From IMG/VR virus record IMGVR_UViG_3300044568_003751, positions 1-64,000 of that record: a stretch of DNA of 64,000 bases; one strand, written 5' to 3'. Both the position numbers and the translations under genes were made by a program. The notes beneath the pieces are model-generated. The model saw nothing but the letters and a program-made list of their open reading frames with translations, had not been told where the DNA came from and did no database searches. Source of the stretch: a virus. Below, piece by piece: positions 60,727 to 64,000 of this stretch; the first letter of the stretch is position 1, and each line of letters starts with the position of its first letter.

Positions 60727-60800
60727 TGGCGACTCGTGATGGAATCGAACCACCGCTAGAAGTTTTGGAGACTTCCGCACTGCCACTATACTAACGAGCC
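60727..60800 (-). tRNA. tRNA-Trp(CCA)
   Basis: GAAGT-CTCCAAA-ACTTC. Confidence 0.88.
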
Positions 60801-60960
60801 ACGTCACACTGTTGCCAATGTGTGTATCAAAACACACTCTAAGAATATGCTTTGATACGCTCGGATTTTTTTTGTGTACAAGAACACAAGCCATCCCCGA
60901 GGCCGCCCATTTGCAGTTTTGAGTGTTGCAGGCTCGCGTTGCCATTGCACTTGATAACGC

Positions 60961-61008
60961 TTATTGCACGTTATCGTGAATCCACTTCCAGTACTCTTCT
61001 GTTGTCAT
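60961..61008 (-). CDS. 15-aa micro-ORF MTTEEYWKWIHDNVQ
   Basis: Strong SD AAGGAGA 6 nt upstream, directly after the attenuator terminator. Confidence 0.5.
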   Translation of the reverse strand: MTTEEYWKWIHDNVQ

Positions 61009-61021
61009 CGCTGTTCTCCTT

Positions 61022-61235
61022 AAAAAGAAAAACCCTGGAGTTTTTAGTTCCAGGGTCCTTGGCTTAGATACGATTGTATACTACGTTAAGACCCTGTGTC
61101 TCCTAGAATGATTGCTGTTGGGCGACCATAGGCATGTGACCAGGCTGGTGCCTGATTAAACATTGTCTTGGTTAGCAGTGAACAGATTTGTGTTTTCATA
61201 GTATCAATTATAGTTTATTTACCTTTGTGTGTCAA
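61022..61235 (-). promoter_or_regulatory. Putative attenuator 1: promoter, leaderless 37-aa leader ORF (61086-61199), antiterminator, intrinsic terminator
   Basis: TTGACA-17-TATAAT. CAGGGTCTT at the ORF end is complementary to AGGACCCTG in the terminator 5' arm. Terminator ACCCTGGA/TCCAGGGT plus T tract. Confidence 0.65.
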
Positions 61236-61276
61236 TCACTTTGGCAAACTTTTTTGTTGTATTTACGCAACAGATT

Positions 61277-62407
61277 TTATTCACCTATACAGAAGGGTTT
61301 GCTGTAGATTGGTGCACCAACATCTTTTCCAATTATGCTGTTAACGGGATTGGTACTGTTTTCTATCAAATGATTACAAAAGTTTTTTTCTAACAAAAGA
61401 TTTTTTATGCCTTTTACAAAAAGATCGGCCACAACATTGTCCTTCTTTAGCAAGGCATCTAGGCCAGTATCAAATGTTCGGGAAAGATCACCGTCAATGG
61501 TGTCCATTGTTATTACTACTGATTCAAATTTATTTTCTTGTATTTTTTGTGTGAAACTGCCACCTGATACTATCTCTTTTTGTCTAGACAAATTTTTTGC
61601 CCAAGAAATATAAGCGGCATTAGAAGAAATTCTAAATTTTGCGCCAGTAGGATCTAGACTAGCATTGTATGCATTTGCATTCATACGAAGTTTAAGCATT
61701 TTTTTAATCATATGACTTTGTTTGAGTGCCAAGACTGGGGCAGTAAAAAAACATTCAATATTCTCAAAATTCATTGTACTCAGCAAGGTTCTTGCATCAT
61801 GACATGAATAATATTTGTTATCTTTCTTGAATACTCTAGGTTGCTCGTGTCCAGTAATCAAACACCAAGTTGATCCACCAAACTGGTCGGCACAGTAATC
61901 CCACATGACAGAGTCCATGGTTCCCATGGCAAATTTAGGAATCATAGAAATATTTTTAAAAATCCAATCTTCTCCGGTTACAATTTGTTGTTTAGCCGCA
62001 GGATCAAATCGTTCTTTGACAGTGATTTTGGTCAAGGGATCATGATGATTATTTTTCAGCCAATCCACATACTGTGAATTGTACCAGGGCTCGTACTGAT
62101 CATTTACCCAGATAACAATTTCATCAATATGCAAATTATTACGTTTGAACACTTCGTAGATGGTCTGACTGTCAGTGCCACCGCTCCAGGACAGCATAAC
62201 GTGTTGATATTTGTTTCTTAAATTACATGCATGGCGATCCATCAGTTGATCAAGAGACTCGGTGGGTTCTTGCAACCAATTCAGTTGATCATTCTGTTGA
62301 TCATGACAAACAAACTCAATGGGTTTCTTGCTTACAAATGCCTCATATTTGGCAAGCAGGTGATTGAAAATTATTTTATTGTTGACACGAAAGTAGATGG
62401 AAGTCAT
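61277..62407 (-). CDS. PP-loop (adenine nucleotide alpha-hydrolase-like) protein
   Basis: LSWSGGTDSQT motif. AT-rich insert in the tRNA array. Confidence 0.65.
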   Translation of the reverse strand: MTSIYFRVNNKIIFNHLLAKYEAFVSKKPIEFVCHDQQNDQLNWLQEPTESLDQLMDRHACNLRNKYQHVMLSWSGGTDSQTIYEVFKRNNLHIDEIVIWVNDQYEPWYNSQYVDWLKNNHHDPLTKITVKERFDPAAKQQIVTGEDWIFKNISMIPKFAMGTMDSVMWDYCADQFGGSTWCLITGHEQPRVFKKDNKYYSCHDARTLLSTMNFENIECFFTAPVLALKQSHMIKKMLKLRMNANAYNASLDPTGAKFRISSNAAYISWAKNLSRQKEIVSGGSFTQKIQENKFESVVITMDTIDGDLSRTFDTGLDALLKKDNVVADLFVKGIKNLLLEKNFCNHLIENSTNPVNSIIGKDVGAPIYSKPFCIGE

Positions 62408-62416
62408 GTGTATGAT

Positions 62417-62490
62417 TGGATGCGGGGGACAGATTCGAACTGCCGATGCACCTGGCTTATGAGACCGGTGTGGTGACCGCCCTCCCCGCT
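62417..62490 (-). tRNA. Initiator-like tRNA-Met(CAT) with truncated D arm
   Basis: AGCGGGG/CCCCGCA with 1:72 mismatch, CTCATAA loop, normal T arm, CCA end. Confidence 0.6.
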
Positions 62491-62501
62491 GTGTATTTAA
62501 T

Positions 62502-62746
62502 GCTCTGCGTCCCCCGGCGGTAATTATAGTGTATCAGAAATTTGGTCAGCAAGCGATTAACTCACCAATTAGTCTATTCATCACTTACACCCTCCACCCG
62601 CTTCCCGACAGGGACCGTTCTCGTATTGCTAACGCCGGTTAGGTTGGACCGCTGATTGCTCAGTGAAACTTTTCCGTTTCAGAACCACCCGTAGTTGTCA
62701 CACTACTTCTCATCGTCGGGGTCAGACTATCCAGTGACGCTGGAAC
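62502..62746 (-). ncRNA. Candidate large structured ncRNA B (~245 nt)
   Basis: Ends pair (GCGTC/GACGC). Internal helices CCCGAC/GTCGGG, GTAGT/ACTAC, TGAAAC/GTTTCA, CTGA-GCAA-TCAG and GTGTA/TACAC. Confidence 0.6.
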
Positions 62747-62749
62747 GTT

Positions 62750-62815
62750 TGGGAGAGGCCACGGTTGCAGGATCTAGTGCCTTTTGCAAGGGAAGTATCC
62801 AGGCGGTGCGGCCTC
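62750..62815 (-). ncRNA. 66-nt CCA-ending tRNA-like/minihelix element
   Basis: 8-bp terminal stem GAGGCCGC/GTGGCCTC, CCTT-GCAA-AAGG hairpin, no T loop. Confidence 0.4.
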
Positions 62816-62820
62816 AAACT

Positions 62821-62896
62821 TGGCGGTCTTAGGGGGTAACGATCCCCACTCTTACGGCGTGACAAGCCGTCGTGCGTCCATGAACACTTTAAGACC
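62821..62896 (-). tRNA. tRNA-Asp(GTC)
   Basis: ACGGC-TTGTCAC-GCCGT, T loop ATCGTTA. Confidence 0.85.
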
Positions 62897-62899
62897 AAA

Positions 62900-63053
62900 T
62901 TTTTATAGTCAAGCACCGAGAATGCCAATTTAGGAGTCCTGCGCTAACAGTTCCAAAGCCGATGCAGTTATATTAGGATCAGTCGCCGGCCGCTGTGACC
63001 CGAATAGTGTTGGCGTCCCAACACGATACCTTATCGATGCTTGACTATAAAAA
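62900..63053 (-). ncRNA. Candidate ncRNA C closed by a perfect 16-bp terminal inverted repeat
   Basis: tttttatagtcaagca...tgcttgactataaaaa, with internal gtgttgg/ccaacac hairpin. Confidence 0.5.
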
Positions 63054-63056
63054 CAA

Positions 63057-63132
63057 TGGTGCTCCGTGGGGGAATCGAACCCCTCCTTACCCGCGTGAAA
63101 GGCGAGTGTCCTAACCGATAGACGAACGGAGC
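63057..63132 (-). tRNA. tRNA-Glu(TTC)
   Basis: CTTTCAC loop, GCTCCGT/ACGGAGC acceptor. Confidence 0.88.
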
Positions 63133-63144
63133 ATGTGATTTTAC

Positions 63145-63330
63145 ATTGAGGAACCATGTGGATCTTATTCTGCTTGGCTTGCGAGGCCAAGTCACCACGG
63201 TCATTACTGCCAGACGATCCGCCGCTTTTCTGAAACTGCAAGCAGTCTCGGCTTCATGACTGATAGCAAGTGGGCATCCGCCGATGCCAATTCACTTCTA
63301 CCAATGCCACTAACGGGTCTGGTAACCTCT
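63145..63330 (-). ncRNA. Candidate structured RNA D
   Basis: Helices CCAGAC/GTCTGG, GGCATC/GATGCC, AAGTG/CACTT and CTTGGC/GCCAAG. Confidence 0.4.
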
Positions 63331-63392
63331 TTGTATATTTTAAAGATCTGTTGCAAGTAGTCTCGATCGACTTTGTTGCTTTGTTAAGTTCT

Positions 63393-63421
63393 ATTGTAGC
63401 AGAGTTTCAATTTATGGTCTA
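63393..63421 (-). promoter_or_regulatory. Promoter TAGACC-17-TACAAT (early family variant)
   Basis: TGCTACAAT extended -10. Confidence 0.65.
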
Positions 63422-63424
63422 GCA

Positions 63425-63589
63425 CAAAAAAGAAAACCCTCCGAAGTGGAGGGTCTTTGTAAGTAGTACTTTCGTATTACAGGCAAAGTCCCCAATGGCA
63501 ATCCCACTCATGTTCTGAGCGAAGGGTTGTGATGATTGCAGTTGTTTGGTTCATAAGTGTATTATATATGACAAGTGATTGAAAGTCAA
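63425..63589 (-). promoter_or_regulatory. Putative attenuator 2: promoter, leaderless 25-aa leader ORF (63477-63554), antiterminator, terminator
   Basis: TTGACT-17-TATAAT. GGGGACTTTG near the ORF end pairs with CAAAGACCCT. Terminator ACCCTCC/GGAGGGT plus T tract. Confidence 0.6.
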
Positions 63590-63640
63590 GGCTTTTTGGC
63601 TCGATTGCAAGCAGGATCTCAACAAACTGTGTTACTTTGC

Positions 63641-64000
63641 TCATTTCTTAGTCAATAGTTTTACTGCCTGTTGATACTCACGCTCAATATCACGTGCAAA
63701 CTCATCGGGTGTTTGTTTTCGGGGAACTCCAGCATGTACCACAGTAACAATTTGTTTTTGCACTTCTTCGTTGGCTCTAGCACTTTCTAGCACATTGTAC
63801 AAGCGATCACGTGTGTCTTTGGGGGTGCCCGGTGGCGCCCAGAACCCAGTCCAGCCTTCTTGGCTGATATTGTACCCAAGTTCCACAAGACTTTTTATAC
63901 CATTACGTCCCTTTGGGGTTAGTACTGCCAGGCCGTTTAGTTCTCCAGTGGCAACTCGATCCTCCAACAAGAAAGTAACAGTGGTAACTTCGATACTCTT
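63641..64000 (-). CDS. Tripartite tricarboxylate transporter substrate-binding protein (Bug/TctC), C-terminal part
   Basis: G.L..LAV....R......L.ELGY...W.G.WAP.GTP...TPDEFA..I..E pattern. Runs off the window edge. Confidence 0.75.
   Translation of the reverse strand, partial: KSIEVTTVTFLLEDRVATGELNGLAVLTPKGRNGIKSLVELGYNISQEGWTGFWAPPGTPKDTRDRLYNVLESARANEEVQKQIVTVVHAGVPRKQTPDEFARDIEREYQQAVKLLTKK

Follow-up and report, generated by a model that had tools for sequence, protein, structure and literature searches.

Why a phage should place a strong promoter, a very short ORF and an intrinsic terminator directly in front of a tRNA block that already has a promoter of its own is the question raised by positions 63425..63589 of the DNA analyzed here. 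The window, by which we mean the whole analyzed stretch of 64,000 nucleotides, is the first 64 kb of an IMG/VR virus record of 89,311 bases, and because a record of this length is rated only 26% complete, we take its source to be a jumbo phage. Related contigs reach 330-349 kb and originate from lake and other freshwater metagenomes; the phage family is frequent in lake metagenomes. From ~36 kb onward, the minus strand is rich in near-consensus sigma-70-type promoters, and 18 of the 19 promoter sites in the record with at least 11 of 12 consensus matches lie on that strand. The window ends in 24 tRNA genes, all of them on the minus strand, and the two that follow the element under study are the sole tRNA-Glu and tRNA-Asp genes among them. 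When positions 60800-64000 were compared with GenBank phages by blastn, the matches were confined to the tRNAs.

The first-pass annotation had described the element as a leader-peptide attenuator consisting of a promoter, a leaderless 25-codon ORF and a terminator, and we found all three on the minus strand where it had placed them (Table 1). The ATG of the ORF, at 63554, is the seventh base after the -10 box of the promoter P1 and coincides with the predicted start base. The end of the ORF (region 2) pairs with a segment that overlaps the 5' arm of the terminator (region 3) as had been claimed, at nine of ten positions, with one G-U pair and a central A/A mismatch. The two Glu residues and the Asp of the leader ORF are codons 14, 16 and 18, just before the antiterminator, and the next tRNA genes are indeed those for Glu and Asp. 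The element is real and conserved, as the comparison with its relatives shows.

Table 1. Coordinates of the leader unit and of the RNA/tRNA block behind it.
Feature	Position	Strand	Remarks
Promoter P1	63561..63589	-	TTGACT-17-TATAAT, 11/12 consensus matches
Leaderless leader ORF, 25 codons, stop included in the coordinates	63477..63554	-	MNQTTAIITTLRSEHEWDCHWGLCL; TAA at 63479-63477
Hairpin inside the ORF	63495..63539	-	Outer stem GCAATC..GATTGC, inner stem CGCTCA-GAACA-TGAGTG
Codons 14-18	63501..63515	-	GAA CAT GAG TGG GAT (E-H-E-W-D); candidate regulatory Glu/Asp codons
Region 2	63484..63493	-	GGGGACTTTG; last ORF codons, 5' strand of the antiterminator
Small hairpin enclosed by the antiterminator	63463..63480	-	Overlaps the stop codon; fold prediction
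Region 3	63450..63459	-	CAAAGACCCT; 3' strand of the antiterminator, shared with the terminator 5' arm
Intrinsic terminator	63425..63457	-	Stem AAGACCCTCC / GGAGGGTTTT, 10 pairs, 5-base loop; hairpin 63457-63433, then T-tract sequence TTTTCTTTTTT
Promoter P2	63393..63421	-	TAGACC-17-TGcTACAAT; drives the structured RNA and tRNA-Glu/Asp block
Downstream block (read-through target)	62821..63392	-	Structured RNA, tRNA-Glu, spacer, tRNA-Asp
Structured RNA, ~260 bases	before tRNA-Glu	-	Part of the downstream block
tRNA-Glu(UUC)	63132-63057	-	tRNA gene search
tRNA-Asp(GUC)	62896-62821	-	Separated from tRNA-Glu by a 160-base spacer

A protein search through the neighboring gene of 376 residues gave one related locus, and therefore DNA patterns were used to collect relatives. 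A degenerate pattern for the codons of EHEWDCHW found four loci; a pattern taken from the downstream RNA found six, including ones with another leader or with none; and CTACAATAGAACTTAACAAAGCAAC, a pattern covering the P2 -10 box together with the RNA start, found 12 viral and 41 metagenome loci. Including the window, the comparison set comprises 54 loci with 42 distinct upstream sequences, and because several contigs occur in both collections, distinct sequences are the fairer count. The leader module is present in 37 of the 54 loci, represented by 30 distinct module sequences, 26 distinct ORFs and 22 distinct peptides; at the other 17 loci, P2 is directly preceded by tRNA genes, by a copy of the sister unit described below or by other sequence. 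Searching with a pattern for P1 and its ATG returned five viral contigs, all previously collected and all with the module before the same RNA/tRNA block, so that these matches include no natural case of the leader before other tRNAs. The possibility, raised in the first-pass annotation, that the terminator only ends transcription of the upstream gene tctC fails on the genomic contexts: the module is found behind four different upstream sequences, and it is therefore not simply the tctC terminator. A 55-codon ORF (63644-63477), the ATG of which overlaps the tctC stop codon (ATGA), was considered as a link between tctC and the unit and was rejected. The same frame ends after 8 codons in the nearest relative, L003, which carries a small Cys-rich gene between tctC and P1, the 3' end of this gene supplying the bases that immediately precede the P1 -35 box. 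The genome of the window has the Cys-rich gene upstream of tctC (~65452-65290) with its own promoter copy, and a 37-base remnant of it precedes P1. Because the frame is closed in L003 and the Cys-rich gene has moved, we regard the 55-codon ORF as an accident of rearrangement.

The promoter-to-ATG geometry is strictly maintained. The P1 -10 box and the 6-base distance to the ATG are kept in 37/37 module loci, and the spacer between them exists in three versions (ACACTT, AACTTT and AACACT). Three other consensus promoters in the record also have an ATG as the seventh base after the -10 box, and these open ORFs of 115, 77 and 328 codons. The 115-residue product matches GIY-YIG homing endonuclease families, and residues 8-74 of the 77-residue product match DUF6552, the profile of which has 78 positions. 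At 61235, a 37-codon ORF belonging to the sister unit starts with the same geometry. Judged from this geometry heading ORFs with family matches, leaderless translation in this phage is real; for the leader itself, we infer both the translation of the ORF and the start base at 63554.

The leader ORFs of the relatives are 25-29 codons long, with the stop codon 4 bases behind region 2 at 34 loci and 8 bases behind it at the remaining 3. This end is fixed across the 26 distinct ORFs; the other two frames hold stops in 26/26 and 23/26 of them. The 22 distinct peptides fall into three types and one hybrid: type A (MKQTTAIITTLRSEHEWDCHWGLCL), type B (MKQTTAIIVNSIAFTSEREDD[PS]PRVFVGK), type C (for example, MITTNAITNTYCSEKEWDCLQGLCV and MMTINAIANTFRSEHERDCLQGLWM) and the hybrid (MKQTTTIIVNITSEREDDLPWGLCR). 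Among 19 close type-A ORFs, 24 non-synonymous and 11 synonymous events were counted, a crude ratio of 0.58. The N-terminal half of the peptide carries many replacements, and the non-synonymous events in codons 14-25 of type A are all singletons. The motif S-E-x-E-x-D is kept in every peptide type, although its Ser codon is TCA for types A and C but AGC for the hybrid and for type B. E-x-E-x-D is present in 35/37 loci, the exceptions being L029 (E14A) and L039 (E16D), and it begins 22-23 bases before region 2 in all 35. At the nucleotide level, G.G.CTTTG of region 2 is invariant in 30/30 distinct module sequences, and the 3' half of the small enclosed hairpin, GTACTAC, is nearly so. Type B (L019, L032 and L056) has a 1-base deletion just before region 2, reads region 2 as R-V-F instead of G-L-C, and continues into a different C-terminus with its TAA 4 bases further on. 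The bases of region 2 are thus kept across two reading frames, suggesting a constraint on the RNA, and this frame-shift evidence counts as one event because it comes from one lineage.

We then consider the RNA pairing that such a constraint might serve. The antiterminator pairing of the window has an energy of -10.2 kcal/mol. Of 2000 dinucleotide-shuffled versions of the ORF, 127 pair at least as well, so that the pairing of the window alone is not beyond chance. In six relatives the pairing does better than shuffling: the corresponding counts, each out of 2000, were 32 (L016), 13 (L019), 3 (L020), 11 (L021), 4 (L066) and 76 (L053), which are not independent trials because the loci are homologous. 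In each of these relatives, the paired stretch stops at base 72 of 78 or at base 80 of 90. Across the 30 distinct sequences, 100% of the terminator cells are paired, and one terminator pair shows a compensatory change from C-G to G-C in 8 sequences. For the antiterminator, 92.3% of the cells are paired: five of its ten pairs never vary, four vary on one side with the pairing kept, and at the central position 8 sequences have U-A and 1 has U-G, with 21, including the window, left unpaired. No antiterminator pair is changed on both sides among the 30 sequences; the changes that do occur in its strands all keep pairing or hit the often-mismatched central position. Region 3 would stay conserved for the sake of the terminator alone. 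When all 28 structure pairs are taken together, 89.4% of the cells pair, compared with 37-45% after a shift of the partners by 1-3 columns, a control that is biased in favor of the structure because the structure was derived from one of these sequences. The hairpin inside the ORF has 93% of its outer-stem cells and 85% of its inner-stem cells paired, and two of its pairs are changed on both sides.

Fold predictions describe two competing states. The ORF hairpin was predicted in 10/10 variants folded; it ends before region 2 and never pairs with it, and because it does not overlap region 2, the 1:2 (anti-antiterminator) pairing is absent. When the RNA was cut before the 3' arm of the terminator, region 2 paired with region 3 in 10/10 variants. 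The lowest-energy fold of the full transcript was the antiterminator, lacking the terminator, in five of the ten (L019, L066, L020, L040 and L058) and the terminator in the other five (the window, L016, L024, L021 and L053). In seven of the ten, masking region 2 gave a state no more stable than the antiterminator state. The antiterminator of the window is the weakest of those folded, at -14.3 kcal/mol vs -18.4 kcal/mol for the terminator state. RNAalifold applied to all 30 sequences returned the terminator and not the antiterminator, together with spurious pairs to promoter columns; this alignment included the untranscribed promoter, and the method cannot show two exclusive folds. Rfam gave no family at gathering score for the leader unit. 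Its best scores, Phe_leader at 20.1 bits (gathering 55, E 1.7) and rnk_pseudo at 17.6 bits (gathering 55), fall on the terminator part only, and we took both as chance.

The window holds a sister unit (61235-61022), which the first-pass annotation had called the same architecture with unrelated sequence. The likeness of architecture was borne out: the sister unit also has a consensus promoter, an ATG at the start base and a short ORF followed by tRNA genes, and the end of its ORF pairs with the 5' arm of its terminator. The claim of unrelatedness was not borne out in full, because this pairing runs through the same GGGTC / GACCC core that is found in the leader unit, and the terminator tails of the two switches are similar. 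The lowest-energy fold of the sister unit has the pairing CAGGGUC[CU] / GACCCUG in place of the full terminator in 7/9 variants. One lineage has this pairing segment immediately upstream of the stop codon, and another has it five codons upstream. The sister unit differs from the Glu/Asp unit in having an unrelated peptide of 36-47 residues with a Shine-Dalgarno-led 15-codon ORF behind it, and in heading the main array of 22 tRNAs. Comparing its peptides with the tRNAs downstream gave no consistent match across the lineages of the sister unit.

A promoter just past the terminator had been noted at first pass as a possible source of basal expression, and this caveat proved well founded: the P2 -10 box is identical in 54/54 loci. 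Because P2 is conserved throughout, the switch would only add to a basal level, and because 17 loci run the block from P2 without the module, the switch is dispensable. Presence of the module goes with a P2 -35 box of TAGACC (37/37 loci), and its absence with TTGACC or TTGACT (17/17). This pattern fits a weaker P2 that would be topped up by read-through from P1, and the link between the -35 box and the module may reflect a single ancestral event. Contigs of relatives from four metatranscriptome runs cover the RNA/tRNA block and the leader, with DNA carry-over being possible. Three of them cross the terminator (X1 record 7, 63372-63474; X5 record 23, 63310-63527; X8 record 32, 63383-63570), and such contigs, which may also derive from DNA carry-over, cannot show transcript ends or levels; X8 record 32 starts upstream of the predicted start base, again with carry-over as a possible origin. 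The 376-residue gene has no RNA contig cover, which is uninformative since relatives such as L006 are without that gene.

Our favored reading, which we hold to be fairly probable, is that the unit is a leader-peptide attenuator on a leaderless mRNA: a ribosome that reaches the ORF end would bring about termination, and lagging translation would allow read-through. We favor it because only a ribosome on the last codons or the stop codon is placed to cover region 2, and because an upstream segment that out-competes its own terminator should give read-through unless that segment is covered. Host RNA polymerase would start at P1 on the A of the ATG, and a ribosome would load on the 5' AUG and translate the 25-codon leader; the ORF hairpin, as a conjecture, may pause the polymerase until the ribosome arrives. 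A prompt ribosome on the last codons or the stop would cover GGGGACUUUG and leave CAAAGACCCU free, the terminator would form, and the P1 transcript would end at ~63425. If the ribosome were late, absent, or held at Glu codons 14/16 (less so at Asp 18), GGGGACUUUG would pair with CAAAGACCCU as soon as the latter is transcribed and the terminator would be blocked. Transcription from P1 would then cross the weaker P2 into the structured RNA, tRNA-Glu and tRNA-Asp, and slow translation would thus raise the output of the block RNAs atop the basal level from P2. In short, the phage probably sends more transcription into tRNA-Glu/Asp when ribosomes lag. The attenuator proposed at first pass is thus partly supported, in that its anatomy was recovered and the conservation and folds of the relatives speak for it.

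How specific the response would be depends on where a ribosome leaves region 2 accessible. Ribosomes shield ~12 bases beyond the first base of the A-site codon. Assuming this footprint, a ribosome at Glu-14 or Glu-16 would leave region 2 free, and one at Asp-18 would cover ~3 bases of it; we infer this geometry as well as its effect on read-through. The candidate regulatory codons are only three and non-adjacent, and the next tRNA genes are those for Glu and Asp. Given an attenuator, we consider codon-specific Glu/Asp sensing and a response to general ribosome speed to be about equally credible, and the sensing of Glu/Asp-tRNA, which is suggested by three conserved codons, is attractive but unproven. 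More tentatively still, the unit might close a feedback loop, in which a shortage of charged tRNA-Glu/Asp, for example through host tRNA breakdown or a tRNA-cutting host defense, would make the ribosome wait and let P1 feed the only tRNA-Glu/Asp genes of the phage.

Other explanations share parts of this evidence. The unit could be an independent small gene, that is, a leaderless mRNA for a functional peptide of 25-29 residues that is ended by its own terminator, with the pairing to the terminator arm tuning the stability or termination of this mRNA and not the tRNA block. We judge this unlikely, though worth keeping in view. The ORF is open and its start fixed in 37/37 loci, the acidic S-E-x-E-x-D is kept as an amino-acid sequence despite the use of different Ser codons, each non-synonymous change in codons 14-25 is a singleton, and P2 is the downstream block's own promoter in 54/54 loci, all of which would suit a gene made for its peptide. 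However, the C-terminal residues of type B are replaced wholesale with the nucleotides unchanged, neither Cys is conserved across the types, and the N-terminal half tolerates many replacements. Moreover, it would be surprising for a plain gene to retain a sequence that competes with its terminator and wins in the lowest-energy folds of 5/10 variants, and the sister unit has the same competing fold with an unrelated peptide.

The amino-acid-level conservation of E-x-E-x-D in 35/37 loci would also suit an attenuator that senses the nascent acidic peptide itself, the ribosome aborting before region 2 according to Mg2+ or the state of the ribosome. Runs of Asp/Glu can reportedly make a ribosome fall off early (intrinsic ribosome destabilization), as is said of the Mg-sensing mgtL leader, and the constant distance of 22-23 bases from the motif to region 2, together with the type B sequence S-E-R-E-D-D-P-P, in which an acidic run is followed by Pro-Pro, is in keeping with such an abort. 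We nevertheless find this improbable, since the peptide has few acidic residues, with H, W, K or R standing between them, and the identity of the next two tRNA genes, Glu and Asp, would be left unexplained. Least probable of all, in our judgment, is that the unit makes a non-coding structured RNA of ~130 bases with an incidental ORF, or acts as an insulator that shields P2 and the tRNA block. An incidental ORF is difficult to reconcile with an ATG exactly on the predicted start base in 37/37 loci across three spacer sequences, with an ORF end that is fixed although the other frames hold stops, and with the same promoter-to-ATG geometry heading real genes in the phage. The strong promoter and strong terminator ~130 bases apart, the conserved RNA structures and the lack of protein or RNA family matches would fit either version, but the unit travels with P1 behind four upstream neighbors, and in L003 the 55-codon ORF that would join it to tctC is cut short at 8 codons.

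Textbooks describe leader-peptide attenuation as a control of amino-acid synthesis genes, and the attenuator that we favor resembles the known systems in part. One such class comprises the trpL, hisL, pheL, thrL, leuL and pheST attenuators (PMC1183508). Like them, the phage unit has a short ORF close to the promoter, with an intrinsic terminator ahead of the genes, one segment that pairs either as antiterminator or as terminator arm, and a fold that would be picked by the position of the ribosome on the leader. Unlike those systems, the phage unit has a leaderless mRNA. It further departs from the amino-acid-operon and pheST attenuators in that it is without a 1:2 pairing and has only three scattered candidate codons, targets tRNA and non-coding RNA genes instead of biosynthetic enzymes, and has a second promoter behind its terminator. 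Because there is no 1:2 pairing, an untranslated leader should read through and not super-attenuate.

The response to general ribosome speed has a counterpart in the bmrB leader of Bacillus subtilis bmrCD, where general slowing of translation leads to read-through via a leader peptide and competing folds (PMC4191407). Attenuators of the bmrB type answer to ribosome-targeting drugs and control bacterial transporters or ABC-F factors, whereas the phage unit would control parts of the translation machinery itself. For the leaderless start, the nearest likeness is to the mycobacterial cysteine-responsive short ORFs, in which an ORF at a 5' AUG regulates the genes behind it by being translated (bioRxiv 10.1101/834739); these ORFs carry runs of Cys codons and their targets are operon mRNAs. 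The phage unit differs from them in reading out through an intrinsic terminator and in targeting RNA genes. Leader peptides and frequent leaderless mRNAs are also reported for Corynebacterium (PMC3890552). Full-text literature searches, going by the titles and the beginnings of abstracts that they returned, yielded no leader-peptide attenuation before tRNA genes or in a phage.

If the attenuator reading is true, giant phages would not merely carry tRNAs but meter them against the translation state of the host, with a sensor that consists of one promoter, 25 codons and ~70 bases of RNA. This would touch on the reasons for phages having tRNA arrays and on their means of coping with the loss of host tRNAs, and it would provide a compact and portable part that reports ribosome speed. 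Should the feedback loop hold as well, it would be a case of leader-peptide attenuation of tRNA genes themselves, in a virus. The natural variants form a ready-made mutant set, in which the antiterminator is strong or weak, the leader is frame-shifted, or the leader is missing altogether.

The ~260-base RNA that lies downstream of P2, the promoter heading the tRNA-Glu and tRNA-Asp block, is highly conserved across the 54 related loci, and compensatory changes are visible in its stems (for example, GGCATC..GATGCC vs GACACC..GGTGTC). The ~320-base RNA on the other side of the tRNA pair accounts for the highest contig depth in the RNA libraries, reaching, for instance, 541 at 62518-62618 in X8, one of the four metatranscriptome runs. 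Neither of the two RNAs matched a family in Rfam. In the tRNA-like element that follows, the T arm is normal and an anticodon-like loop carries CAT, but the D and anticodon region is odd; the element was not called by ARAGORN, and the Rfam tRNA model scored it at 17.3 bits (E 1.9). An ORF of 376 residues starts ~12 bases past its end. The spacer within the tRNA pair is flanked on both sides by a 16-base inverted repeat, TTTTTATAGTCAAGCA / TGCTTGACTATAAAAA. It is missing from one contig of the RNA libraries, in which 62896 is joined to 63065, and so looks like an insertion.

Coordinates of the features in the window and in the whole record (G000:C1)
Feature	Location	Strand	Basis
Structured RNA, ~260 bases, between P2 and tRNA-Glu	window 63392-63133	minus	
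160-base spacer, tRNA-Glu to tRNA-Asp	window 63056-62897	minus	
RNA, ~320 bases, between tRNA-Asp and the tRNA-like element	window 62820-62498	minus	
tRNA-like element	window 62497-62420	minus	
15-codon ORF with Shine-Dalgarno, MTTEEYWKWIHDNVQ	window 61008-60961	minus	
Permuted (two-piece) tmRNA gene	G000:C1 ~66840-66475, outside the window	minus	marked as permuted by ARAGORN

In the loci that lack the leader module (L017, L027, L033 and others), the stretch immediately before the P2 -35 box, where module-bearing loci have the terminator, holds the motif TGTTGT(A/C)AAAA..(G/A)CAACA, which is conserved and makes up a hairpin or inverted repeat. The motif lacks a T tract and could serve as a site for protein binding or for processing. 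Directly 3' of the terminator of the sister unit, the similar leader-ORF element that heads the main tRNA array, lies the 15-codon ORF, which the relatives keep as M[ST]TEEYW[KQR]WI[HRQ]DNVQ and whose stop is contained in a conserved hairpin.

Consensus promoters were also found within the tRNA arrays of L003 (7889-7926 and 8274-8312), the nearest relative, and of L073, L074 and L075. Each is placed so that the predicted start base falls 1-2 bases ahead of the 5' end of a mature tRNA (Ser, Gly, Cys, Met), which puts this start almost at the functional 5' end, as is the case in the leaderless mRNAs of this phage.

Comparison of the gene order in window 63641-64000 and G000:C1 65509-63622 with that in L003 2990-4820 revealed that the gene for the TctC-like binding protein and a small Cys-rich gene (MQHAI[EK]CDS..) are swapped between the two genomes, and a 37-base duplicate of the end of the Cys-rich gene precedes P1, the promoter of the leader module. 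Farther along the record, the permuted tmRNA gene, which is also present in the relatives L010 and L074, has a promoter (TAGACA-17-TATAAT) directly upstream, and its tag was read from the sequence as ANDSQFALAA.
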